Positions 3,369-22,070 are shown, counted from the first letter of the stretch. The stretch is 32,000 bases of DNA from Candidatus Hermodarchaeota archaeon (GCA_048886185.1 JBHLKY010000012.1:5881-37880); one strand, 5' to 3'. Translations and numbers: made by a program. The notes: generated by a model from the sequence alone, not told the origin.

Positions 3369-4511
3369 ATGCCTCTTCGTCAATCCCTTAAGGGAATTCG
3401 CATTTTGGATTTAACTAGTAATCTTCCTGGACCCTTAGCGACTCAAATACTAGGTGATTTTGGTGCCGATGTAATAAAGATTGAATCACCTCGTGGAGAT
3501 ATTGTAAGAAACTATCCACCTTTCATAGCTTCAGAATCTCTTATTTTTCTATTACTTAATCGTAATAAACGATCTTTCGCAGTTGATCTTAAAACCAAAG
3601 AAGGAATAACTCTTTTTTATGAATTAGTCAAAACATGCGATATAGTGGTAGAAGGATTTCGCCCTGGAACTGCTAAACGAATGAAGATCGACTATCACAC
3701 GCTTAAAAATATAAAACAGGACATTATTTACTGTTCGTTGATTGGATATGATACACATGACACAAGGTCTGGGCATGACCTGAATTATGTGGGGGAAACA
3801 GGAATTCTTCATATTACAGGACAAAAAGAAACGCCTACCCCAATAGGGGTTCCTATTGCAGATATTGGTGGTGGTAGTTTACCAACAGTCATCTCTATCC
3901 TAGCTGCGTTACTTAACCGAAAAAGGAAATCCCAATATGTCCAGGTGAAAATGACTGAGCAATTAATACCTTGGTTGAGTGTTGCTGCAGCCAACTATCT
4001 AGCGGAAATAGGTGAACCACAACGGGAAGAGCACATATTATCGGGTTATAATCCTTTCTATCGCCTTTATCGTACTAAAGATAATCGTTACATATCATTT
4101 GCACCATTGGAAGCAAAATTTTGGCACAATTTCTGTAATGCAATTGACAGAGAGGATCTTATCAGTAAGCAATTTGATTTTGATATTTGTAAAACTGAAC
4201 TTCCAAAAATTTTTGTCCAAAAGACTTTATCGGAATGGACTGACTGGTTCCCCAAAAATGATGTTCCAGGAGCTCCTATCTTAACAGTTGGTGAAGCCTT
4301 AAGCGTCAAAACACGCATTAAAAACATAGTTCATCCAATAGCAGGAAAAATCCCCACATTTTCTTCCCCATTTCTTGATTATGATCATGGTGTTGTAATA
4401 TGCCCCCCACCATTATTGGGACAACATACAAAAGAAATTCTTGAGGAAATTGGATATATTAAGGAATTCAAGAGTCTAAAACATCAAAACATAGTATTTG
4501 CTTCAGATTGA
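3369..4511 (+). CDS. Class III CoA-transferase (CaiB/BaiF), alpha-methylacyl-CoA racemase-like
   Basis: LKGIRILDLTSNLPGP..LGDFGADVIKIE, NRNKRS, VEGFRPG, GHDLNY, GAPPLLGQHT-like end. ORF opens at 3306; ATG 3369 is the more likely start. Confidence 0.92.
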   Translation: MPLRQSLKGIRILDLTSNLPGPLATQILGDFGADVIKIESPRGDIVRNYPPFIASESLIFLLLNRNKRSFAVDLKTKEGITLFYELVKTCDIVVEGFRPGTAKRMKIDYHTLKNIKQDIIYCSLIGYDTHDTRSGHDLNYVGETGILHITGQKETPTPIGVPIADIGGGSLPTVISILAALLNRKRKSQYVQVKMTEQLIPWLSVAAANYLAEIGEPQREEHILSGYNPFYRLYRTKDNRYISFAPLEAKFWHNFCNAIDREDLISKQFDFDICKTELPKIFVQKTLSEWTDWFPKNDVPGAPILTVGEALSVKTRIKNIVHPIAGKIPTFSSPFLDYDHGVVICPPPLLGQHTKEILEEIGYIKEFKSLKHQNIVFASD

Positions 4512-5778: not shown

Positions 5779-6335
5779 ATGATGACCAATTCTAACAATC
5801 CACTAAAAATTGAAAAAATTAGGATCACACCTAAGAGATTCATTTATATTAAGCTCTGGAACCCTCATATCATTCTAAATGGGGAATTCATCGTTCTATA
5901 ATCGAATTGCAGGAAGCTAAGTTATCTGAAGATAAAAAGATTTCTTATGGCACCCCGATCCGTCTTCCCTGTGATGGAAGTTCAGCTCTTATCGCAGATC
6001 TTATAACTAACTATATAATTGACGGAAGACGACTGAATGATGAGTTTAAGGCGCATCAAGAGGAAATTTCCATATCTATACCAAAAACAGGGGAATCTAA
6101 ACGTAGTAACGAATATTCTGGTATGACTTTGGAATCTTTACTCCTAGATGAGTTTAGCAATCAGAAATTGTCAAAAACAAAAATAATTTCTGGACTCTCA
6201 AGAAAAGGAATTGAAATAGATAGGGAGGATTTACTCCAGTCACTCGAATCCTTAGCAGATCAAGGGAAGATAACAAAAGAGTTTGCTGTTCATTCAAGTT
6301 CAGGTACTCGTTACACTCTTTGGGGATTCTTTTAA
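5779..6335 (+). CDS. Putative nucleic-acid-binding protein (PC4/Whirly-like N-terminal beta region plus C-terminal winged helix), probable frameshift near 5851
   Basis: The 5907..6335 frame is open upstream to 5853 (ALEPSYHSKWGIHRSIIELQE). ATG 5779/5782 in another frame gives MTNSNNPLKIEKIRITPKRFIYIK; one extra A at ~5851 joins them. C-terminal wHTH pattern: SKTKIISGL..IDREDLLQSLESLADQGKITKE....RYTLW. Confidence 0.55.
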
Positions 6336-6678
6336 TTCTGTTTAGATCGAAAAACACTAGCTATCTTACAAGTATTCTTGTTCTTATTTTCCTTCTATCA
6401 AGGCATTTATGGGTCAAAATTTATAGATATTAAAGAAGAATATCAATATACCCTAATGAATTAGTAAACTCAATTTATAGTATAGAAAAACCTAGTGTTC
6501 TTTGGTAAAGTGACTCTAATCCCCAAAGAATAGAATTTAAGAGAGAGCATTAAAGTAAAATCTAGGATAATAAATTTCTATTATCTATATATCCTAGTAA
6601 TATAAATATGAAGACATTTTTTGTAACTTGAAGTGTAGTCTTTTCATCTCTTACTTTGTACACAAGGAGCCGTCAAGA

Positions 6679-7068
6679 TTGGACGAACAAATAAAGAATG
6701 AGCTGCGTACTATTTTAGAAGATGTCTTCCAAAAGAATTCACAGGTACAAATGATCTCCTTAATAACTCCTGAAGGTCTTCCCATCTTAACATATAACCG
6801 TGATTCCGAAAGTGGGCCCTCCGAAATTACAGATTCAGGGATCCTGAATAGATATGCAGCTCTTGCAGGAGCGAGTACATCTTTAGGAGACCGCACACTT
6901 TCAACTCTTTCTGAAGAAAAAGTTCGTCTAATTCATGTTCAAGGAAAAACTAAAGATATAGCTATAGCTGTTTCTCCGCATCTAATCTCTTTGGTTGTAA
7001 CTGTCCCCTCTGGAAGTCCAAACATTCTTGCGGAAAAATTAAATTCTGAATTAAAAGCAAAATTATAA
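6679..7068 (+). CDS. Roadblock/LC7 (MglB-like) domain protein
   Basis: ISLITPEGLPI hairpin, AALAGASTSLGDRTL helix, VRLIHVQGK strand. AAGGAG at 6664-6669 precedes TTG 6679; the ORF track start is TTG 6628. Confidence 0.85.
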   Translation: MDEQIKNELRTILEDVFQKNSQVQMISLITPEGLPILTYNRDSESGPSEITDSGILNRYAALAGASTSLGDRTLSTLSEEKVRLIHVQGKTKDIAIAVSPHLISLVVTVPSGSPNILAEKLNSELKAKL

Positions 7069-7086
7069 TTAAGAGTTGAATTCTTT

Positions 7087-9042
7087 ATGGATCCTCATCA
7101 ATGGTTCGATTTAATGAAAGAAGCTCTAAGTTTAGTTGAATCTGAAGTGGATAACTCTCAATTTGAATTAATGCTCTTAATTCAGCCAGCTGCGGAAATT
7201 CAAACTTTTTCTACTTCTAAGAACCAAGAAGATGTGAAAAACACTACTTTAGTTGGACAAGCATGGAATAGCATTATTGGTACTTTAACTAATGAACTTC
7301 AATTGGGGACCTGGAATTCTCTTACTATAAAGAGTCACAATAAGGTATTTACAATGTACTCTATTGGTTTCGATGTAAATCTTATACTTATATCGGAAGC
7401 TGCTATAGACTCTTTAGATGTCCTAAAGGTAATTCTAAAATTCATTTTCAAAATTGGTTATCAGAAAAAATATGAAACAGTAGGACTAGTATCCTCAGAA
7501 GGCTTTCCAGTTTGGCTTACTTCTATAGAAGAAATGGATGATTTTCTCTTTGCGATTTCAATTACTTCGCTTCTTTCTCTAGTAGAACGTATAGATTATG
7601 AGGTTTCTGCTGGTGGAATAGGCGCTTGTATCCTCCAAGGAACTGAAAATTTACTATTAAATGTTGCTTTTAATCCTTCACAAGATTTAGCTCTCGCGGT
7701 GACACAACAAGGCACAAACTTAGATGAAGTAGCTCTTGATCCAGAATTGAGTTCATTTTATCAAAAAATTGTAGATCCTCTAATCTATAGCGCATTCGTA
7801 CCTGAGATTATTGATGAAGATCGAGAACGGATGCTAGAAGAAATTCGTCAAGCTTTTGAGGGTGAGACAACAGATGAAGAGATTGAAACTCTAAGTGCAT
7901 TCAACACCGAAATGCTCCAATCTCTTGAAAATGAAATTAAGACAGTTGCTAAAAAATATGGAGCAAATGAAATATCTATAGGATATCTTCGTAAAAGAAT
8001 GAGGTTACCTTCCGAAGTCCTCTCTATGGCTTTAGAATATCTCATTGAAGAAGGAGCGATCAGTGGAAAGGTTGGAAAGGATCGTGTATCAGGACATGAA
8101 ATATTAGTCTTAGATTCAAGAGTTGATATTAGTAAGGAAGATGAAGAAAAATTAAAAATTATTAAAACTCAAATTGATGATCTTTTTTCACCAATTAAAC
8201 CCTTTCTTATACAATTGCCTGAGATTCAACCAGTAAAAAAAGCTGTTCAGGAAGGTATAACCGAAGCTTTAGGGGAATTTCAGATAATGATTACTCTATC
8301 TGATACTGACCCTCTATACTTATTGGCTAATGATTTACGAATTGTAGGGACACACCTAGAAAGTTCTGTGAAAACATTGAAACTAGTGAAAAACCAGCTG
8401 TCAGAAACAGATCAAGAGGATGTTCTTCGAAATGAGTTAGAACGTCGACACAATAATTTAACTGAGAGAATTCATGAACAAAAATTAACAGCCATTGGGA
8501 AAATTACCCGGTTTTATGGAGATCTTCTAAACTCTTATCGCTTACTTTTTCGATTACTTCCCCTACCAGCTACATTTAGAAGATCTAAGAGTAGGAAAAA
8601 AGCTATCATTATTTTCAAATGCGAGGCGAATACTTGCGATGAAACTTTCCGAATACAAGATAATCCGTCTACATGGGTTAAATTACGCGTTTTTGCAAGA
8701 GTTCTTGGCATTCAGGAGGATTTTCCTAAAAAAACTACACCTAGTGTCTCCAAATTAAGAAAAAATTTGGCAAATCGTCTTAACAAACTTACCACTTTAT
8801 TGAGAAAAGCAGAAGAGAGAATAGACTTTCTACCTGAAGATTTTCTTATTATAGAAAACATGGAAGAGCTATTAATCACAAATACTCAAAGAGACAATGC
8901 GATCAACACCCTCCGAAAGGGTATATTTAAACGAGGTACTGTAAAGAAAGACTTCTATTCGCTTTACACACAATGTAACTCCTGTAACAGATGGTATTGT
9001 CCAAATCATATGGCAACAACTAATAAATGTAAATATTGTTGA
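7087..9042 (+). CDS. Multidomain protein: two tandem Roadblock/LC7 domains, acidic linker, winged helix, helical/coiled-coil region, C-terminal Cys/His Zn finger
   Basis: Domain 2 has VGLVSSEGFPV...FAISITSLLSLVERI..EVSAGGIGACILQG. Domain 1 is a more divergent copy (TNELQLGTWNSLTIKS...SIGFDVNLILIS). WH: ISIGYLRKRMRLPSEVLSMALEYLIEEGAISGKV. C-terminus: CNSCNRWYCPNHMATTNKCKYC. Confidence 0.75.
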   Translation: MDPHQWFDLMKEALSLVESEVDNSQFELMLLIQPAAEIQTFSTSKNQEDVKNTTLVGQAWNSIIGTLTNELQLGTWNSLTIKSHNKVFTMYSIGFDVNLILISEAAIDSLDVLKVILKFIFKIGYQKKYETVGLVSSEGFPVWLTSIEEMDDFLFAISITSLLSLVERIDYEVSAGGIGACILQGTENLLLNVAFNPSQDLALAVTQQGTNLDEVALDPELSSFYQKIVDPLIYSAFVPEIIDEDRERMLEEIRQAFEGETTDEEIETLSAFNTEMLQSLENEIKTVAKKYGANEISIGYLRKRMRLPSEVLSMALEYLIEEGAISGKVGKDRVSGHEILVLDSRVDISKEDEEKLKIIKTQIDDLFSPIKPFLIQLPEIQPVKKAVQEGITEALGEFQIMITLSDTDPLYLLANDLRIVGTHLESSVKTLKLVKNQLSETDQEDVLRNELERRHNNLTERIHEQKLTAIGKITRFYGDLLNSYRLLFRLLPLPATFRRSKSRKKAIIIFKCEANTCDETFRIQDNPSTWVKLRVFARVLGIQEDFPKKTTPSVSKLRKNLANRLNKLTTLLRKAEERIDFLPEDFLIIENMEELLITNTQRDNAINTLRKGIFKRGTVKKDFYSLYTQCNSCNRWYCPNHMATTNKCKYC

Positions 9043-9072
9043 TATATCTAATTGGAATAGGGGACACAATGG

Positions 9073-9864
9073 ATGAAACTAGTGGTAGGAATCGATATAG
9101 GTTCGTTAACAGCAAAAATTGTTGTTCTAGCGATTCCCAACAGATCAAAGGACGAAATCGAGCAGAAATATTCCTTTATTAAACGCGTAGGTTATAATCC
9201 AGCGGGGATTGCCATTGATCTTATAAATAGTGCAAAAAAGTCTATAGGGGTAGAAAATTTTTCCTATATGATCTCTACTGGTTATGGGAGAAAATTAGTT
9301 GAGAATGCTGACGAGAGAATAACTGAGATTACATGTCATGCTACAGGAGCCTTTTTTATCAATCCTGATATTCGAACAATAATTGATATTGGAGGACAAG
9401 ATTCCAAAGTAATTCAAATAAATGAAAAAGGTCAAATTCAAGATTTCGAGATGAATGATAAATGTAGTGCAGGGACAGGACGCTTCTTGGAAGTCATGGC
9501 TAATGCTTTAGAAGTAGAACTGTCAGAATTTGGTAATCAAGCCCTAATTTCTACAAATCCAGCTTCTATATCAAGTATATGCACTGTATTTGCAGAATCA
9601 GAAGTAATTTCTCGTCTGAATCAAGGAGCTAATAGAGTTGATATTATTGCCGGAATTCACAAAACAATTGCCAATAAAATTACTGCATTAGCAGCCCGAG
9701 TAGGAATCAAACCATTAATAGCCTTAACAGGTGGAGTTGCTTTAAATCCAGGAGTGAGAAAAATGCTTGAAAAAAACTTCAACTTACCTATTGAGGTTCC
9801 TGTGCATCCCCAAATGATTGGAGCATTAGGTGCTGCTTTGTTAGCATCTAAAAATCTAGTATAG
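9073..9864 (+). CDS. 2-hydroxyacyl-CoA dehydratase activator-type ATPase (HgdC/HadI/BadG family, ASKHA fold, [4Fe-4S])
   Basis: GIDIGSLTAK, STGYGR, EITCHA, DIGGQDSK, MNDKCSAGTGRFLE, SSICTVFAESEV (both cluster Cys present), GGVALN, IGALGAAL. Confidence 0.93.
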   Translation: MKLVVGIDIGSLTAKIVVLAIPNRSKDEIEQKYSFIKRVGYNPAGIAIDLINSAKKSIGVENFSYMISTGYGRKLVENADERITEITCHATGAFFINPDIRTIIDIGGQDSKVIQINEKGQIQDFEMNDKCSAGTGRFLEVMANALEVELSEFGNQALISTNPASISSICTVFAESEVISRLNQGANRVDIIAGIHKTIANKITALAARVGIKPLIALTGGVALNPGVRKMLEKNFNLPIEVPVHPQMIGALGAALLASKNLV

Positions 9865-9884: not shown

Positions 9885-10859
9885 TTGTCCAATGTTTACA
9901 AAGATTTGACAATTTTAGATGTGAAAGAAACACTCAGGCAGATACGACCTTATGTGATTAATACGCCATTAATTAGGTCTTATTATTTAGAAAAACAGAT
10001 TGGAAAGGAGATATACTTAAAACTAGAGTATTTACAACCAACACGATCATTTAAAGTTCGTGGAGCTTGCTCAAAGGCATTATCATTAGAGAAAAAAGAA
10101 CTATCAAAGGGATTAGTTACCGCATCTGGCGGAAATCATGGATTGGGAGTATGTTATGCCGGAAGAGAACTCAAAACTCCAGTTATTGTCTTTCTTCCAA
10201 TAAATACCGCTAAAGAGAAAGTAACTTCAATACAGCAATGGAGAGGGAAGACAATTTTATTTGGTGAAGCTTGGGATGAGGCAAATCTTAAAGCACAACA
10301 ATACGCACAAGAGAATGATTTAACATATATTCACCCGTTTGATGATATAACTGTGGTTAGAGGTCAGGGAACTATAGCAATCGAAATACTAGAGCAAAAT
10401 CCCTATCTCGATGCAATTGTGGCTTCAGTTGGAGGAGGAGGTTTGATTAGTGGAGTTGGGGTTGTCTCAAGACAAATGAAACCAGAAATTAAAGTTTGGG
10501 GAGTTGAAACAATTGGATGTGATGCCGTGACACAAAGTTACAGGTTAGGTCATCCTGTCACTTTACCTGCTATTACAAGTATTGCAGACACATTAGGGGC
10601 AAAGAGAACAACAGAAGCAACCCTAAGCAGAATTAAAGCCGTTGTAAATGATATGCAAACTGTTACTGACAAAGAAGCTTTAGATGCTTTACAGTTACTT
10701 TTAGAAAAAGAAAAAATTCTTGTAGAACCCGCTACTTCATGTTCTGTTGCTGCCTTACTACAAAATAAGTTTGAATTATCAGATGTAGAAAAAATTTGCA
10801 TCATTTTGTGCGGTGCAAATGTTTCCCTTAGACAACTAAGAGAGTGGGGAGTGCTTTGA
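9885..10859 (+). CDS. PLP-dependent threonine/serine dehydratase without ACT domain
   Basis: KLEYLQPTRSFKVRGA (PLP Lys), SGGNHG, HPFDD..GQGT, VGGGGLISG, LVEPA; 324 aa, catalytic domain only. Confidence 0.92.
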   Translation: MSNVYKDLTILDVKETLRQIRPYVINTPLIRSYYLEKQIGKEIYLKLEYLQPTRSFKVRGACSKALSLEKKELSKGLVTASGGNHGLGVCYAGRELKTPVIVFLPINTAKEKVTSIQQWRGKTILFGEAWDEANLKAQQYAQENDLTYIHPFDDITVVRGQGTIAIEILEQNPYLDAIVASVGGGGLISGVGVVSRQMKPEIKVWGVETIGCDAVTQSYRLGHPVTLPAITSIADTLGAKRTTEATLSRIKAVVNDMQTVTDKEALDALQLLLEKEKILVEPATSCSVAALLQNKFELSDVEKICIILCGANVSLRQLREWGVL

Positions 10860-10938: not shown

Positions 10939-11454
10939 TTGGATGCGTTAGAACTATTAAAAAGTCGTAGAAGTATTCGAAAGTATAAATCAACCCCAGT
11001 AGAGCCTGAAAAAATTGAGAAATGTCTAGAGGCTGCTCAATGGAGTCCCTCTGCCAGCAATAAACAACCTTGGGAATTTCTGATCGTAACGGATGAAGAT
11101 AAGAGAAAAAAATTAGCTATTTTCCATCCTTATGGGAAATTTGTAGCAGAAAGCCCAGTAGTTTTCATTCCTTTAACCAATCCTAAGGTTCATCCCAAAT
11201 ATCATCAATCTGATACTGCCTTAGCTACCTTACAATTCATAATTGAAGCTCATTCCTTAGGTTTGGGAACTTGTTGGGCAGGGGTCATAGGAACAAACTT
11301 TGAAAACAAAATTAAGGATTTATTAAATATCCCTGAGCATCTAAGAGTACTTGCACTCGTGGCTGTTGGATATGCTAATGAAACTCCTAGTTCTAATCGA
11401 AAACCTATTGAGAGCTTAGTCCATAAAGAATCATACATTCGTCATTATTCCTAA
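10939..11454 (+). CDS. Nitroreductase family protein
   Basis: RRSIRKY, A..SPSASNKQPWEF, AHSLGLGTCW, LVAVGY. Confidence 0.93.
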   Translation: MDALELLKSRRSIRKYKSTPVEPEKIEKCLEAAQWSPSASNKQPWEFLIVTDEDKRKKLAIFHPYGKFVAESPVVFIPLTNPKVHPKYHQSDTALATLQFIIEAHSLGLGTCWAGVIGTNFENKIKDLLNIPEHLRVLALVAVGYANETPSSNRKPIESLVHKESYIRHYS

Positions 11455-11810: not shown

Positions 11811-13706
11811 TTAGTTAGATCTTTTTGTTTTTCGGGAAAATATAACAAGTATTCCTATGAATAGAATAATGGATATGTGATTTAAAAATAAACCTGTTTG
11901 TTGGATTTGAGTGGTAGTTGGATTCATTTGCTGGGTCATCGTGCTTACTAGAATGGAAACTATAGAAGAAGATGTAATGATTATTGGTTTCCATAAGACA
12001 TAATAAGGTCTCATGAATTCAATTGGAAAAATGGTTTCATTTAGAGAAGAATCTATAAAATAAAAGCGATAGTAATATTCTAATTCCCTACTTAGCCCAA
12101 TAAACTCATACTGACCAGAATCCTTGAAATCTAAATCTTGTAAAACCAATTCTTGATATCCAGCAACACCCCACTCGATCTCTATTCGCACAGGGCGATC
12201 AATAGTCCATTCTACTAAAATACCTCTTGAAGTATTGAAAAACTCAAGGTGAAGGATTACTGGTTGGTAAGGGGATGGTTCAAATCCCCAAGTGGTTGAG
12301 AATGCCAAATTAAAGGTTTTTGGATAAAGTCGTGTAATGTTATTTTGATCAGCAATCCATAAACGATAATATACCCTGTAACTTACTGGTGCTTTAATTA
12401 AAATTGTTCTTGATGTATCAAGTGTTGTATTAATGTACTTTATTGTTTGATAACCTGCTTCCCCCCATTCTGCAATGATTTGCGTTGGAATATCGGTTTT
12501 TAGAGATAATCTGACACCTGCAGTCGTATTAATTGCATTAAATGAGACTACTTGAGGAGAAAACTCTGAATTTATAAAAACTGATGGTCTCCATTTATTA
12601 TAGTAATTTCTGATTAATGAATTGTTCGTAAGCCTATAAATAACCTCTAACTGGAAAACATGAATCTTTAGATAGTCAAAATTGACTTTACCTTTTCTTG
12701 CGTATTTCGAAAGCCCGAAATAAGTATCATATTCAGGAAGACTAGATTCAATTGCTGCACTTCCTTCATAAAATAATTGGCTTGCTAGGGCCTTTTTTTG
12801 CGTACGAGGGTGTTTTGAGTACTCATAAAGTCCAAAAATGGCATAAATATGACCGTTTAAGATAAATTCTAAGTCTTCCTCTTGTTCACAGGGCGATTCG
12901 AGAAACCATGTTTTATTGATTCCCTCAATAAAAGTAAATCCTCCTTTTTCCCGTGTATAATTGTTTCCTGTGAAAGTGATACCCCCCTCTTCCCATTCAT
13001 AAGTAAATGTTTCCAAGACTTTGTTTACTCCTTCTAAATAGGAACTATTTCCAGTGACTTCTTCTGCTCTAAGAAGAACTTGAATAATCAATCCTTGTGC
13101 TAACCCTGAGACCCAAGGTACAGTTTGTTTATGCCAAAGTGGGATTTTCCAATTATATAGGAAGAAACCATCGTTTGTCATGTTTTTCATTAAAAAATCA
13201 GCAATTTTCAGAAGTATACTATAATTGTTAATCTGATAATTAAATAATGCGAAGAAAGCTGTTGTTACAGGATTGTATTTCCAACCTAATTCATAATCGT
13301 GTAAGCTAATTATAACATATTCTCCGGTAAACTGATAGATTCCTTCTTTAAAGTGGCGTTCAATAGAAATTAAATCTTTATAAACTATTTTCCAACCATC
13401 AATATCATATTCCTTATAGAAGGAGTTGTTATTAGGAACATCTGGTGAAACAAGATTTGTTAATCCTTCTTTATGATGATAATCTATATTTTTTGTCTTT
13501 TCAAGGATTTTAGGATTTTTAATTTCTTTTGAATTCGAAAATAAGGAAGTATTGTATGAATAGGTAAAAAAGGATGAATAGGATATTAGGATTATAAGCA
13601 TAATGAATTGAATCATATTCTTAGACAGTCTATATTTCAAAATAAATAAGCTAATTCCAACATTAGGTGTTTCCACCTTTATTTCCTCTCTGATAGATTT
13701 TTTCAA
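11811..13706 (-). CDS. Surface-anchored D-glucuronyl C5-epimerase-like protein with two FN3/Ig-like repeats and a C-terminal TM anchor
   Basis: C5-epimerase C-terminal motifs YNPVT, WVSGLAQG, WFLESP, FILNGHIYAIFGLY, YDT, YLKIHVFQL, YYNKW. N-terminal hydrophobic segment, many NxS/T sequons, T/Q-rich linker, TM, then RKTKR. The start codon may lie downstream (MIQFIML). Confidence 0.8.
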   Translation of the reverse strand: MKKSIREEIKVETPNVGISLFILKYRLSKNMIQFIMLIILISYSSFFTYSYNTSLFSNSKEIKNPKILEKTKNIDYHHKEGLTNLVSPDVPNNNSFYKEYDIDGWKIVYKDLISIERHFKEGIYQFTGEYVIISLHDYELGWKYNPVTTAFFALFNYQINNYSILLKIADFLMKNMTNDGFFLYNWKIPLWHKQTVPWVSGLAQGLIIQVLLRAEEVTGNSSYLEGVNKVLETFTYEWEEGGITFTGNNYTREKGGFTFIEGINKTWFLESPCEQEEDLEFILNGHIYAIFGLYEYSKHPRTQKKALASQLFYEGSAAIESSLPEYDTYFGLSKYARKGKVNFDYLKIHVFQLEVIYRLTNNSLIRNYYNKWRPSVFINSEFSPQVVSFNAINTTAGVRLSLKTDIPTQIIAEWGEAGYQTIKYINTTLDTSRTILIKAPVSYRVYYRLWIADQNNITRLYPKTFNLAFSTTWGFEPSPYQPVILHLEFFNTSRGILVEWTIDRPVRIEIEWGVAGYQELVLQDLDFKDSGQYEFIGLSRELEYYYRFYFIDSSLNETIFPIEFMRPYYVLWKPIIITSSSIVSILVSTMTQQMNPTTTQIQQTGLFLNHISIILFIGILVIFSRKTKRSN

Positions 13707-14285: not shown

Positions 14286-16562
14286 TCATCGAAGAGCCAG
14301 TTGAAAGGAGAGATTTTTCTGTTCTTGTTGTCCAAATCCAATTAAATCAGCTTGGCCTCGCTTTATGGCTAGTTCTGCAGTTTCAACATCGAAATCACCA
14401 CTACAAACGATGGCGATGTGAGGAAGATCATCTTTTACTTTTTGGATAAATCGCTCAACACCTGCTTCTTGATCTGATAAATAGTCGATACAAAGTAGCT
14501 CGATCCCTGCTTTCTCGATTGATTTAACGACTATAGATAGTTCATCTTCAGATAAACCATGAAATGGAGCCGAGATATAAAAAGCAAGCATCATGTTTAA
14601 AGGAAGATTTGCACGAATCGCCGTTGCCACTTCTAATGGAAAACTAATACGCTTCTTAAGCGATCCCCCGTATTCATCGCTTCGTTGATTGTATTCTTGT
14701 GAGAGAAATTGACCAAGGAGATCTGGCTTGTTATGTGTTACGCTTGAGGAGATTTCAACAATATCAAAACCCACACGTGCAGCACGCATTGCAGCTTCAA
14801 CGAAAGAATCACGAATCTCAATAATTTCATCGTCTGATAAAGAACGAGGGGTATCATGATTTATGATTGGGATTGCTGAAGGTGCTATTGGTTGTACACC
14901 ACATATTGATTTCTTGGTCGCACCACCTGCATGAGTCAATCTTATACCAATAAGAGATCCGTATTCATGAACTTGATTGACTACTTCCTTAAGCCGAGGA
15001 ATTACATAATCATCATGAATTCCAATTTGATAGAGATGATCCTTTCCTGAAGGAGTTATATAAGCAGGCTCCAGATAGACAAGTCCCGCACCACTCTGAG
15101 CTATTTTAGTATAATGGTTAATCGCGTCTCGAGTAATCTGGCCATTTACCAGTTCCCCTGCATTTATCTCTCCGATCTTGGTTGAAGGCATTACTACTCG
15201 ATTTCGAGCTTGCAGCTTTCCCAATTGGTAAGAACGAGTCAGAATTGATTCTTTTGGAACACGATTTCTAATTATTAAAATCATCAGGGTTGCGATTGTA
15301 TATAGGGTAGCAGTAAACATGAAAACATAGAGAAAACCAAAATTATCTATAATAAATCCTCCAAATGAGGCAGAAAGCGACCAGAACATTCCCCAAGCTA
15401 AAGTTTCTAATGAATTCCATTTAGCTCTCGAAGTTGATGGAACTACATCCATGACAATAGAACGACTCACAGGTCCAGCTGCATTCATTAAAGCATTACG
15501 ACTAATATAAAAAATCACCAGAAGTAATACAGATATAGGAAATGAGATGATCTGATTCTGATATAATAAAAGGTTTACCACCAAGCCCAATAAACAAATA
15601 ATTGCGAGACCCTGAGTTAAGAATACTGAACCAATACGCCCAAAGATTCTAATCATCCGTTGAGCTAGAAGTGCTGCTGATCCTGTAATAATAAATGTTG
15701 TACCAGTTATAAGATATGTAAAGAACGGTTTCAAGCCATATCCTATTGTTGGGTTAGCAAATAAAATAGGAAAAAACGCTACTGTAGCCCCAGCACCAAA
15801 TCCAATGATCACTCCACTGATAACTAAAATTGTAGGAGTTATAGCATCATAATAAAACGGATATCCGAATAATGTTACATATGGTTGATCTTTGGTATTT
15901 TCTTTCACCAAAGTCCCTGACTCAGGAGAAACTGACTTTTTTACCTTAATTACAATTGCCTTATCGTCAGAAGCAAATATCACCGTAATGTAGGCAATTA
16001 TTGAACATATTGCTCCAATGAAAATGAGATTTTGAAGCAAAGTGAAATCCCACGCGTCACCAAGGATCAATGTAAGCCCCGCTGCTAAGTAAGGCCCTGC
16101 AGCTGATGCTAAAAGGTTAGCAAAAAACATTTTTGCGAAAACTTGACTTCGACGACCTGGTTCAATAGAATCAGCAATTAATGCCTGTGCAGCCGGACCA
16201 GATAATCCCCAACCTATTCCTCCAAAGGTTTCACTTAGAAAAAGAACAGATAGTGCTACATGAGGAGTTTCAGTCAATGTAGTTGAATAAATAAGCGCAA
16301 TTTGAGCGAAAACGCCAAAGAATACAGAGATTCGGATGAGGAGATCTCTCCGATATTTATCTGCAAAATATCCAGAAGGAAACACAAAAATAGTAGAAGC
16401 TAATCCTTGTATTGTAAAAAGATTCCCCAAGATCAAATTAGATTGTCCTAATCCTTGAGGTGGATTGTTTGTTACATAGATAGAGAAAGCAGTCTGAATT
16501 ATACCCATTCCGATAGCAAAACCAATTGTTTGGATATAAGCCAACTTGATATTCCAATTCAC
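14286..16562 (-). CDS. MFS transporter fused to a degenerate NADH:flavin oxidoreductase (Old Yellow Enzyme) domain
   Basis: About 435 aa of 12-TM MFS (SGYFADKYRRD, ADSIEPGRRS) continues without a stop into LGKLQARNRVVMP, GAGLVYLE, HAG, GFDIVEI, QFLS..NQRSDEYGGSL..R..F.LEV, ADLIGFG. Confidence 0.88.
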   Translation of the reverse strand: MNWNIKLAYIQTIGFAIGMGIIQTAFSIYVTNNPPQGLGQSNLILGNLFTIQGLASTIFVFPSGYFADKYRRDLLIRISVFFGVFAQIALIYSTTLTETPHVALSVLFLSETFGGIGWGLSGPAAQALIADSIEPGRRSQVFAKMFFANLLASAAGPYLAAGLTLILGDAWDFTLLQNLIFIGAICSIIAYITVIFASDDKAIVIKVKKSVSPESGTLVKENTKDQPYVTLFGYPFYYDAITPTILVISGVIIGFGAGATVAFFPILFANPTIGYGLKPFFTYLITGTTFIITGSAALLAQRMIRIFGRIGSVFLTQGLAIICLLGLVVNLLLYQNQIISFPISVLLLVIFYISRNALMNAAGPVSRSIVMDVVPSTSRAKWNSLETLAWGMFWSLSASFGGFIIDNFGFLYVFMFTATLYTIATLMILIIRNRVPKESILTRSYQLGKLQARNRVVMPSTKIGEINAGELVNGQITRDAINHYTKIAQSGAGLVYLEPAYITPSGKDHLYQIGIHDDYVIPRLKEVVNQVHEYGSLIGIRLTHAGGATKKSICGVQPIAPSAIPIINHDTPRSLSDDEIIEIRDSFVEAAMRAARVGFDIVEISSSVTHNKPDLLGQFLSQEYNQRSDEYGGSLKKRISFPLEVATAIRANLPLNMMLAFYISAPFHGLSEDELSIVVKSIEKAGIELLCIDYLSDQEAGVERFIQKVKDDLPHIAIVCSGDFDVETAELAIKRGQADLIGFGQQEQKNLSFQLALR

Positions 16563-19804: not shown

Positions 19805-21904
19805 TCATCTAAGGACTCTTCGTCGGATTTTCGCGGTTAATATTTGTTGCAAGAACACCTGTTTCAAGTATGTTGTTTTTTCAATTATTTTTTGAGTTGT
19901 GATTAATTTAGTATCAATAGCTGAGAGAATGTTTACAATGTCTTTTTGTTCGCTCAAAGGAGGGAGGAAAATTTGGATCGTATTAAAATCTGATCTGTTA
20001 ATTCCTCCCACAACCCCATGGAATCTTTTTTTGATTTGGTTCTGGCAGATGGAAGAGAATAATAAATAAAATAGAAAATAATTATCCAAAACTTCCCTAT
20101 CTTTACTTCTTACAATAAAAATATGTTCATTAACAGCGATTTTCTCATAGGGTAAATCCCTTACTAGACCGACTTTCCCTGTAGTTGCTCCGTCTTTCAC
20201 TACTAGAATATCATTCAACTGTACTTTTCCCTGTGAAAGGTTCTTATCATAGAATTCCTCTGGAATGAATTTGATATTCGTCCAAAGAATTTGACCTGAA
20301 TCATTAATATGTTCTCCCCCAATACTGGCTACTACTCCCTCTTTTAATGCTCCACCTTTGGCTCTTTTCCCTGTTTCTAACTCCACAAACTCCCCCAAGT
20401 ATACCTTACGCCATGTATCAGGAATGTTTTTCATTAAACTTTCTTCAAATCCATTAAAGATATCATCGATTTTCTGATTGATGTCCTTTTGTTTCTCGTC
20501 TAATTTTTTCAATTCAGAAATATCAGAATTTAGCTGAGAAATGTTTTTTGGATCATCTTCCACAGTCGTCTCAATATAAAGGGGAATATTCAGATTATAT
20601 CCATATTCTCTTATTTCTCTTAACGAAGCTACCCTTGAGAATCTTTTAATAGAATTAAAATTTTTGAATGCCATAACGATTTTAGCTATATCCTCCTCCT
20701 GTAAAATGTTCTTGGATCTTTCCTCTTTGTAGAGTTGAAATGCATCAATGAACAGTATCTTATTTTTTCGGTCTGGGTGTTTTTTCTTGTTAAGCAATAC
20801 AATAGCTGCTGGAATTGACGTTCCATAAAAGAGATTAGGAGCTATTCCAATAATTGCTTCTATTAAATCATTGTCAACCAAAGCTTTTCGGATTTTTTTT
20901 TCATTACCTCCTCTGAACAAAATACCATGAGGAAATATCGCTCCCATTCGTCCATTAGGCTGTAATGTGGCTAACATATGCTGTAAAAAAGCCATATCGC
21001 CATATGATTTTGGAGGTATTCCATATTTAAAACGATTGTATGAATCATTTTTTGCTATTTCAATTCCCCAATGCGCTAGAGAAAAGGGGGGATTTGCGAT
21101 AACGATATCAAACAGTATTAATTGATCATCCTCAATCAGCTTCGGATTTCGAATTGTATCTCCACTTTTTATTTTAAAATTAGCTATTCCATGTAGTACC
21201 ATATTCATAATACAAATTGACCATGTATGTATGTTCTTTTCTTGCCCATAAAGTGATAAATTCAGCCAATTACCCCCGTTTCTTTTAATATACTCAACAC
21301 ATTGGATTAACATCCCTCCTGATCCTACTGTTGGATCTGAAATACACATTCCCTCTTCTGGTGAGAGTAATTCTACCAAGAGTCTGACAACCATATGAGG
21401 AGTATAAAATTCTCCTCCCTTCTTACCAGCTGATTCAGCAAACTGAGCAATTAAATATTCATAGGCCCTACCCAATATATCAGGGTCAGTTAAATCACAA
21501 TTTCGTAGTCGTAGATTGCTAAAATGCCTAATTAGATGATTCACTGTTTCATTGGATAAACGGTCACTAATATCAAAGCTAATTCCCGTTAAAACCCCTT
21601 TTAAAACAGGGTTGTGTTTTTCGATTACATCACATGCCTTCATTAAAGATGAGGCGTTGAGTGCAGGCCATTGAGCTTGTTTAGGGATGAAAAATGCATA
21701 ATTATCAAGTTTGTCCTTTTCAGAATTGTTCACATGTTGAATTTTCTTTTCAATTTCTTCTTCAAAAACATCATTTAATCGTTTTAAGAATAACAAGCTA
21801 AAAATATAGTGCTTATATTCAGAGGCATCAACACTCCCCCTTAAAATATTGCTTGCTTCCCAAAGATGTTTCTCTAACTCTTCTTGACTTATTTTTATGC
21901 CCAT
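19805..21904 (-). CDS. hsdM: Type I DNA methyltransferase HsdM fused to a single-TRD HsdS half
   Basis: HsdM N-domain (LWEASNILRG..EYKHYIFSLLFLKRLND), GKKGGEFYTP, DPTVGSGGML, NPPF, GIPPKSYGD. Then IPDTWRKVYLGE...DILVVKDGATTGKVG...PPLSEQKDIV...KQVFLQQIL. ATG 21904 preferred over 21943. Confidence 0.92.
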   Translation of the reverse strand: MGIKISQEELEKHLWEASNILRGSVDASEYKHYIFSLLFLKRLNDVFEEEIEKKIQHVNNSEKDKLDNYAFFIPKQAQWPALNASSLMKACDVIEKHNPVLKGVLTGISFDISDRLSNETVNHLIRHFSNLRLRNCDLTDPDILGRAYEYLIAQFAESAGKKGGEFYTPHMVVRLLVELLSPEEGMCISDPTVGSGGMLIQCVEYIKRNGGNWLNLSLYGQEKNIHTWSICIMNMVLHGIANFKIKSGDTIRNPKLIEDDQLILFDIVIANPPFSLAHWGIEIAKNDSYNRFKYGIPPKSYGDMAFLQHMLATLQPNGRMGAIFPHGILFRGGNEKKIRKALVDNDLIEAIIGIAPNLFYGTSIPAAIVLLNKKKHPDRKNKILFIDAFQLYKEERSKNILQEEDIAKIVMAFKNFNSIKRFSRVASLREIREYGYNLNIPLYIETTVEDDPKNISQLNSDISELKKLDEKQKDINQKIDDIFNGFEESLMKNIPDTWRKVYLGEFVELETGKRAKGGALKEGVVASIGGEHINDSGQILWTNIKFIPEEFYDKNLSQGKVQLNDILVVKDGATTGKVGLVRDLPYEKIAVNEHIFIVRSKDREVLDNYFLFYLLFSSICQNQIKKRFHGVVGGINRSDFNTIQIFLPPLSEQKDIVNILSAIDTKLITTQKIIEKTTYLKQVFLQQILTAKIRRRVLR

Positions 21905-22070
21905 ATAACTGTGCAATTTTCTTTGATGGTGTTTTTTTTGCATTTGATATGCCCAAGTCGATCATTCTGATGAATAATTTTTCAATAAAAAGACTTCTTA
22001 AAACCTTATTGAAATTGAGATTTACTCAATCCTAAATTATGTATTCCAACCCATAGGGAAAATAATCCAA

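Follow-up and report, generated by a model that had tools for sequence, protein, structure and literature searches.

A Hodarchaeales-specific Roadblock gene pair in a predicted operon with an HgdC-type activase that may be displaced from its dehydratase

The window analysed here is the whole stretch of 32,000 nucleotides taken from Candidatus Hermodarchaeota archaeon (GCA_048886185.1, JBHLKY010000012.1:5881-37880), that is, positions 5881-37880 of contig C12 in the genome that we designate G000 (4.84 Mb, 96% complete). Close homologues of the proteins that it encodes carry the labels Hodarchaeales or Heimdallarchaeota. Our subject is a cassette of four plus-strand genes in this window, at 6679-7068, 7087-9042, 9073-9864 and 9885-10859. 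An original prediction, made from the sequence alone, had described these genes as tightly spaced, and recomputing the gene coordinates returned the same gaps of 18, 30 and 20 nt. The first two genes encode a small and a large protein with predicted Roadblock folds, which we term RblS and RblL; the third encodes an activase and the fourth a pyridoxal phosphate (PLP) enzyme. The features of the cassette are as follows.

6590-6609, plus strand: TATA-like element, conserved and AT-rich, situated ~70-90 nt ahead of the RblS start and probably the operon promoter
6679-7068, plus strand: RblS, stand-alone Roadblock-fold protein of 129 aa, TTG start
7087-7398, plus strand: RblL residues 1-104, Roadblock-like domain 1, assigned by topology and shape match
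7405-7782, plus strand: RblL residues 107-232, Roadblock domain 2, where RblL is most strongly conserved, with the invariant C181
7900-8118, plus strand: RblL residues 272-344, winged helix, following a disordered acidic linker (residues 233-271)
8134-8556, plus strand: RblL residues 350-490, long helices of a coiled-coil stalk, from DSSP of the model
8569-9042, plus strand: RblL residues 495-651, C-terminal domain with eight invariant metal-type ligands
9073-9864, plus strand: HgdC/HadI-type activase ([4Fe-4S] ASKHA ATPase), BcrAD_BadFG match at 4e-60
9885-10859, plus strand: fold-type II PLP enzyme of the Ser/Thr ammonia-lyase/serine racemase family, without an ACT domain, PALP match at 6e-79 (266 bits)

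What kind of proteins head this cassette? The TTG start of RblS is backed by an AAGGAG motif at 6664-6669 and by homologues that begin at MDEQ. RblS stays below the gathering threshold of the Pfam family Robl_LC7 (PF03259; 14.8 bits versus 23, E 0.025), and sequence-profile searches of the PDB with the RblS and RblL alignments gave nothing significant. When the AlphaFold2 model of RblS (alignment of 31 homologues; predicted local distance difference test, pLDDT, 81) was compared with the PDB by Foldseek, 74 matches with E<1e-3 were returned. All 50 of those listed are Roadblock, MglB, LAMTOR or LC7 proteins, at template modelling (TM) scores of ~0.7; the best among the matches listed are the Asgard Roadblock3 (9jue) and a Thorarchaeota Roadblock (7f8m). 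Across 88 close homologues (55-90% identity), helix 2 is nearly invariant. Judged by its predicted fold, RblS is a member of the Roadblock/LC7/MglB superfamily.

RblL, of 651 aa, is predicted to begin with two Roadblock domains, to continue with a winged helix and a coiled coil, and to end in a Cys7His region that resembles a zinc finger. Nothing above threshold was found when it was searched against Pfam and NCBIfam, whole and in six pieces. The domains were taken from an AlphaFold2 model (pLDDT 79, alignment of 36 homologues) that was built on the protein P0001, which differs from the window protein at residue 646 (N/H). In a VIA structure search, residues 107-232 matched 9jue_A, 5y39_G (LAMTOR) and 6h5b_C (MglB) at Z 12.6-12.8 and a root-mean-square deviation (rmsd) of 2.4-2.6, and the invariant columns of RblL concentrate at residues 133-206. 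Residues 1-104 adopt an alpha-beta-beta-alpha-beta-beta-beta topology in the model; residues 7-125 resemble an ESM Atlas cluster that is partly Robl_LC7 (116 aligned, TM 0.54), and the language-model look-alikes of this domain, Robl_LC7/MAPKK1_Int clusters at 0.86, are leads only. This model-based assignment is the weakest of the three, and no profile similarity among RblL domain 1, RblL domain 2 and RblS was detectable by hhalign. The three Roadblock domains read from the sequence at the outset are nonetheless supported by predicted folds, for RblS, for RblL 107-232 and, more weakly, for RblL 1-104.

The best match of the RblL winged helix is a subunit of the COP9 signalosome (9efq_B, VIA Z 10.2, rmsd 1.6); further matches are UFL1/DDRGK1 (Z 9.9) and the MarR-type proteins SarS and MepR (Z 8.9). 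Its invariant residues are G299, Y300, L301, R302 and R304. Compared with PCI proteins, it is preceded by the disordered linker and Roadblock domains, not by helical (TPR-like) repeats. The stalk consists of helices at 350-366, 368-376, 385-404, 408-440 and 446-490. In the C-terminal domain, the ligands C512, C517, C630, C633, C638, H641, C648 and C651 are invariant in 36 sequences and are spaced C512-x4-C517 and then, ~112 residues on, C-x2-C-x4-C-x2-H-x6-C-x2-C. The last 30 residues give a weak match to zf-AN1 (PF01428), covering the second half of that model only (18.6 bits versus 27.9, E 0.002); language-model look-alikes of the C-terminal part, at 0.85 or below, again are leads only. An N-terminally truncated RblL beside the activase in genome G009 was considered as a natural dissection of the protein and rejected, as the gene ends at a 100-N scaffold gap. 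The single 3.2-Mb contig of that genome (G009:C1) has 100-N gaps at L060 4224-4323, 7512-7611 and 14768-14867, one of which cuts RblL. The 315-aa protein P0154 spans matching residues (332-649) and may be a similar gap artefact.

RblL is an undescribed architecture made from known domain types and is restricted to the order Hodarchaeales. Its 63 close homologues (38-72% identity) are all labelled Hodarchaeales or Heimdall-type, and among 1.84 billion representatives an exhaustive profile search picked out 28 proteins. Of the 24 species genomes in the window's order, 21 contain RblL, and of 376 further Asgard genomes searched, none does; a phylum-wide genome search for further RblL returned the same 21 genomes and no others.

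How far does the gene order hold within this range? In one family of the order, f1, all loci with sufficient flanking sequence (L001-L024, L026 and L029; ~20 species) have strictly the arrangement RblS-RblL-activase-PALP, with gaps of at most 61 nt where measured and with RblL down to 39% identity over the same range. The flanks vary: FtsX, an MCP-like gene, DUF763 or a CoA-transferase upstream, a nitroreductase or unrelated genes downstream. The coupling of Roadblock genes to the activase had at first rested on adjacency in one genome. That reservation can be lifted for f1, throughout which the cassette is kept, but it holds at greater distance, where the linkage is absent. In three further clades, at ~25% identity to RblL, a small Roadblock gene always lies directly upstream of the large one, and the activase and PLP genes are absent beside the pair (L031-L037). 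A synteny check of the activase/dehydratase linkage, as originally proposed, therefore fails at this depth, since only the Roadblock pair is kept, with other genes downstream. The small upstream proteins of L031-L034 match Robl_LC7 at E 3e-6 to 3e-3, one of them above the Pfam cut-off (L031, 27.2 bits), and those of L036 and L037 are aligned to RblS by hhalign with a probability of 91%.

The gene that follows RblL differs among these clades. In L031, L033 and L034 it encodes a HIT hydrolase, and in L032 a cyclophilin-like protein, followed by ABC transporter genes. In L035 and L036, which represent clade D (45% identity between the two RblL proteins), it is convergent, begins 11-30 nt past the RblL stop and encodes a Ras/Arf-like GTPase of 179 aa. 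The absence of a GTPase beside the Roadblock genes of relatives, on which the original prediction depended, thus breaks down in clade D, where such a gene abuts the 3' end of RblL. In L037 the contig ends inside the abutting gene, which is not counted as a GTPase here, and the contig of P0161 is too short for neighbours. Extra loci of the GTPase-linked clade were sought, with 110 pattern matches and 0 confirmed. In L031, L033 and L034, genes for Fe-S assembly from the SUFBD_core, Aminotran_5 and NifU_N families (L031 13-963; L033 2383-6975; L034 715-1158) precede the pair, at a distance of 290-600 nt. Because the deeper clades keep the pair while the downstream gene differs, we regard RblS and RblL as a stable unit.

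Is the cassette also an operon? A purine-rich Shine-Dalgarno-like motif stands ahead of each of the four genes, and the AT-rich spacer of 344 nt upstream of RblS contains the TATA-like element. The motif TATCCTAG-N-CTATA(A/T)A of the window recurs in five close relatives (L001, L008, L009, L012 and L015); other subclades have another conserved element, TTTTAATAA, at a comparable distance from the RblS start. The gaps of at most 61 nt, the Shine-Dalgarno-like motifs and the conserved TATA-like element together lead us to predict an operon, so that in one family of the order the cassette would be co-transcribed from a promoter upstream of RblS.

The third gene was identified from the start as encoding a [4Fe-4S] ASKHA activator ATPase, and this identity is borne out. 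The cassette activase scores above the curated cut-off of TIGR00241 (CoA_E_activ; 251.1 versus 125.4 bits), and the HgdC structure 1HUX matches it at 1e-63, with conserved ASKHA motifs. Its residues C131 and C170 align with two cysteines in the cluster region of 1HUX and are invariant in 22 cassette orthologues; their counterparts in HgdC are Cys127 and Cys166, which we take to be the ligands of the [4Fe-4S] cluster.

Which dehydratase might this activase serve? Three of the four activase genes of G000 adjoin HGD-D genes on contig C9. On contig C17, an HgdA/B-like pair (C17:12316-14711) stands without a nearby activase, beside two short-chain dehydrogenase (SDR) genes; pair and SDR genes follow one another on the same strand at C17:12316-16392 (L038 8317-12393). 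The top PDB match of the pair is the alpha subunit of 2-hydroxyisocaproyl-CoA dehydratase, at 8e-68. Orthologues of the pair, at 73-88% identity, occur in 17 of the 22 f1 genomes, and the activase matches listed for these include none that shares a contig with the pair or, in single-contig assemblies, lies close to it. In genome G015 (94% complete), the cassette activase is the only unpaired activase. The closest activases outside f1 are those of the sister family f6, at 300 bits versus 220-265 for paralogues. Immediately upstream of these f6 activases stand HgdB-HgdA genes that are orthologues of the C17 pair (46-48% identity). In a maximum-likelihood tree the f6 activases join the cassette clade (support 84/85), and no Roadblock genes were found in the 1.5-kb flanks of these hgdBA-activase operons. 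Since an orphan dehydratase pair exists and its f6 orthologues stand directly upstream of the closest activases, the cassette activase appears to have an ordinary client, which is probably the C17 pair. The simplest history, judged from these gene orders, would be that an hgdB-hgdA-activase operon was split in the ancestor of f1 and that the activase settled behind the Roadblock pair. If the orphan dehydratase explains the activase, most of the reason for postulating a new Fe-S signalling ATPase is gone.

The fourth gene had been called a threonine dehydratase. Membership in the PALP family stands; the threonine ammonia-lyase equivalog cut-off is not reached. The enzyme falls below the NCBIfam equivalog cut-offs in all 25 models listed of the 48 matched, the best being TIGR01127 (280.5 versus 378.75 bits), and in the PDB it comes closest to serine racemases and the catalytic domains of IlvA, with a probable serine racemase as top match. 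In clostridial amino-acid fermentation, a serine or threonine deaminase yields a 2-oxoacid, reduction and a family III CoA-transferase convert this to a 2-hydroxyacyl-CoA, and an activated dehydratase removes water.

Does the lack of a GTPase gene set this cassette apart? That the window holds no small GTPase gene is correct as first stated: a Pfam scan of its open reading frames (ORFs) of at least 100 aa (27 of 29 listed, the other two overlapping larger genes) found no GTPase family, and the nearest Ras-family match on C12 is 34 kb from the cassette. No GTPase was found beside the cassette in the f1 loci either. As a distinguishing mark, however, the label 'GTPase-less' has to be given up. 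G000 has 10 Robl_LC7 matches above threshold, 5 within 2 kb of a Ras-family gene and 5 not, so that half of its canonical Roadblock genes have no GTPase nearby; and 328 of 749 prokaryotic MglB homologues are orphans, none of which had been characterised as of 2014 (PMC4316618). On these two counts, the absence of a GTPase is not unusual in itself. Asgard genomes contain ~130 orthologous groups of the Roadblock superfamily, and their eukaryotic signature protein genes lie mostly outside conserved neighbourhoods (bioRxiv 10.1101/2020.10.19.343400).

G000 itself encodes ~60 small GTPases. The gene at C6:203263-203790 was tried as the counterpart of the clade-D GTPase (57-59% identity versus ~52% for the next paralogues); it has no Roadblock gene nearby and was uninformative. 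The region C6:200295-208641 (L039 4295-12641) is a dense cluster of three small-GTPase-like genes and a gelsolin-repeat protein (L039 10338-11291), and it also encodes a protein of 760 aa that has a TrmB-type winged helix at its N terminus as well as long helical regions. In L004, L005 and L033, GTPases at 6-7 kb from the cassette were likewise rejected, being different paralogues with 30-44% identity to the clade-D protein; with ~60 such genes per genome, such a distance is within chance.

How, then, should the cassette be read? We favour a composite operon of two modules, one formed by RblS and RblL, the other by enzymes of amino-acid fermentation. An order-specific Roadblock scaffold module would share its transcript with a dehydratase activator that has been displaced and with an enzyme yielding a 2-oxoacid, an account in which our confidence and our doubt are evenly balanced. 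All recognisable parts of RblS and RblL are protein-interaction modules, which is why we propose that the first module acts as an adaptor or scaffold like MglB or Ragulator, with RblS pairing with one of the Roadblock domains of RblL. Such a heterodimer is suggested by the gene pairing conserved in all four clades. The client of this module would most likely be one of the small GTPases encoded elsewhere in the genome. In the second module, the activase would be the displaced cognate activator of the activase-less dehydratase pair at C17:12316-14711, and the PLP enzyme may deaminate serine or threonine to a 2-oxoacid feeding the reductive branch, for which a family III CoA-transferase is encoded nearby. 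Co-expression, possibly linked to nutrients, would couple the two modules in one family of the order.

Several observations speak against this account. The four-gene block outlasts rearrangements on both sides in ~20 species, with RblL down to 39% identity, a persistence that points to more than accidental hitch-hiking. The grouping of the f6 with the cassette activases has only moderate support (84/85), and in G002 (93% complete), which has the cassette, no orthologue of the C17 pair was found. The adjacency to a GTPase is limited to one clade with two divergent members and is convergent, hence not a matter of co-transcription, and a GTPase client of RblS/RblL stays a candidate only. A complex prediction with RblS, RblL(1-232) and two activase copies scored 0.00 ('no answer') and weighs neither way.

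How does the cassette compare with systems already described? MglB is the GTPase-activating protein (GAP) of the Ras-like GTPase MglA (6h5b, 6hjm, 3t12). It is like RblL domain 2 (Z 12.7) and like RblS (Foldseek probability 1.0, TM ~0.65-0.7), whose small size is also similar, and a Ras-like GTPase stands beside the RblS/RblL pair in one distant clade. On the side of the differences, RblS and RblL show no sequence-level similarity to MglB (Pfam below threshold; PDB profile search E>0.1), no GTPase is adjacent in the window or in f1, and the partner of RblS is a multidomain protein of 651 aa rather than a second copy of itself. Ragulator/LAMTOR and EGO, heterodimers that scaffold Rag GTPases, share with the cassette the joint encoding of several distinct Roadblock domains; LAMTOR chains are among the best structural matches of RblL (5y39_G, Z 12.7; 5y3a_B, Z 12.6), and the gene context of the cassette is one of amino-acid metabolism. 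The cassette differs from them in lacking a linked Rag-type GTPase with a C-terminal Roadblock domain or a LAMTOR1-like wrapper, in the fusion of two Roadblock domains with a winged helix, coiled coil and zinc finger in RblL, and in that RblS and RblL give no sign of membrane anchoring.

The HgdC/HadI activators (1hux, 4eht) resemble the third gene only, by the match at E 1e-63, the cysteines, the ASKHA motifs and TIGR00241. The cassette activase is not beside its own dehydratase, as they are, but between two Roadblock genes and a PLP enzyme; the sister-family orthologues retain the canonical hgdB-hgdA-activase order. Archaeal fusions of a winged helix-turn-helix (wHTH) with Roadblock form an ESM Atlas cluster (Robl_LC7 96%, HTH_24 62%, FaeA 43%) and likewise carry both domains in one polypeptide. 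They are proteins of ~190 aa with a helix-turn-helix (HTH) recognised by Pfam, whereas in RblL two Roadblock domains are combined with a winged helix that Pfam misses and with a tail of ~300 residues. The conservon of Streptomyces (CvnA-D: kinase, Roadblock, DUF742, GTPase) also places a Roadblock protein in a conserved signalling cassette (PMC4316618), but includes a GTPase and a histidine kinase, neither of which is present in the RblS/RblL cassette.

Could RblL be a transcription regulator? Its Roadblock domains would sense a signal or dimerise with RblS, and its winged helix would bind DNA and control its own operon, with a logic like that of CodY. Foldseek aligns RblL ~1-350 with CodY (GAF plus winged helix) at the level of architecture (E 6e-4 to 2e-3), but at an rmsd of 17-19 Å these matches share domain order only. 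MarR-type winged helices match at Z 8.9, and an invariant basic stretch, Y-L-R-x-R, lies in helix 2 of this domain; yet the top matches are of the protein-interaction type (COP9 signalosome PCI and UFL1/DDRGK1, Z 9.9-10.2), ~1 Z above the MarR type and thus a near tie, and the putative recognition helix (309-321) is acidic/hydrophobic, with no basic residue. Fusions of HTH_24 or FaeA with Robl_LC7 exist in archaea as an ESM Atlas cluster, and the gene pair heads the operon behind a conserved promoter region. Against this, the pair is kept in clades with quite unlike downstream genes, and a 300-residue coiled-coil/zinc-finger tail is atypical of a simple repressor. We consider a regulatory role of RblL improbable, if still worth keeping in mind.

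Alternatively, the Roadblock platform might directly bind and regulate the Fe-S activase, gating ATP-driven activation of the dehydratase by amino-acid or energy status; the NTPases under Roadblock control would then include an ASKHA ATPase in addition to GTPases. Strict order and tight spacing across f1 are in keeping with such contact, as is the fact that in three other clades the next or next-but-one gene after RblL handles nucleotides (HIT, ABC ATPase, Ras-like GTPase). The Roadblock superfamily was, moreover, first proposed to consist of general NTPase regulators (Koonin and Aravind 2000, as cited in PMC4316618). There is, on the other hand, no linkage to the activase beyond f1, the nearest activase relatives belong to plain hgdBA-activase operons whose 1.5-kb flanks contain no Roadblock genes, and nucleotide-binding proteins are common, so the pattern of neighbours could be chance. 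We know of no structural precedent for contacts between Roadblock and ASKHA proteins. Direct binding therefore strikes us as rather unlikely. Of the Roadblock-activase signalling complex that had been suggested, the operon proved real and conserved in one family; the complex itself gives way to the co-expression of two separable modules, which we favour. A bolder variant, to which we attach equally little probability, would make RblS/RblL a general adaptor of nucleotide hydrolases whose clients were swapped as the order radiated (ASKHA ATPase, HIT hydrolase, Ras-like GTPase), gating dehydratase activation in f1. If true, a Ragulator-like scaffold would be wired directly to amino-acid fermentation, in an Asgard lineage that is among the nearest to eukaryotes.

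That RblL is instead an Fe-S or redox protein, its eight Cys/His ligands (plus C181) holding an Fe-S cluster rather than zinc and the protein being a client or sensor tied to Fe-S metabolism and the activase, is the least probable reading: the eight ligands are invariant, and the pair lies just 5' of an Fe-S ATPase in f1 and just 3' of SufB/D, SufS/IscS-like and NifU/IscU-like genes in L031, L033 and L034, but the ligand spacing and the weak zf-AN1 match point to a two-zinc finger, the gaps of 290-600 nt to the Suf/Isc genes indicate probably separate transcription units, and the other two clades have no Fe-S context.

Two metabolic genes recur on either side of the cassette.

3369-4511, plus strand: family III CoA-transferase (CoA_transf_3 at 9e-83), a recurrent upstream neighbour
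10939-11454, plus strand: nitroreductase, often but not always found next downstream, probably under a promoter of its own

The CoA-transferase, whose top PDB match is a succinate-hydroxymethylglutarate CoA-transferase, lies upstream of the cassette in L001, L002, L003, L007, L022 and L023; it is directly adjacent in L003, L022 and L023, ending 88 nt before RblS in L003. The nitroreductase gene directly follows the PLP gene in L001, L002, L004 and L005, does not in L003 and is 4 kb off in L007; the gap of 79 nt between the two genes in the window contains a TATTTATAA element. Just 5' of the cassette, the window has a 142-aa ORF without a family match (5907-6335, plus strand), and a gene of 177-188 aa occupies the corresponding place in L001 (5723-6271), L002 (6763-7329), L004 (4434-4967) and L006 (7009-7566).

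Further downstream, on the minus strand, 11811-13706 encodes a 631-aa protein that carries the C-terminal domain of D-glucuronyl C5-epimerase (4e-32) and has hydrophobic segments at both termini. It sits between the nitroreductase gene and a single 758-aa frame (14286-16562, minus strand) that joins a major facilitator superfamily (MFS) transporter (residues 15-346) to a flavin mononucleotide (FMN) oxidoreductase of the Old Yellow Enzyme (OYE) type (446-745). The epimerase-domain gene is absent from this place in L001 and L002, in both of which the MFS-OYE fusion is called likewise, at 741-763 aa. At 19805-21943 (minus strand), a 712-aa protein with HsdM_N, N6_Mtase and Methylase_S domains is a fused type I methylase/specificity subunit, and a similar gene lies at the edge of L002 and of L003.

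Roadblock/longin platforms such as Ragulator, GATOR, TRAPP and Mon1-Ccz1 play a central part in the GTPase signalling of eukaryotes, and Asgard genomes are rich in Roadblock families without known partners. RblS and RblL offer a compact two-gene system for seeking the binding partners of an orphan Asgard Roadblock platform. If the cassette activase is the activator that the orphan dehydratase lacks, it would close a gap in the amino-acid fermentation predicted for these archaea.

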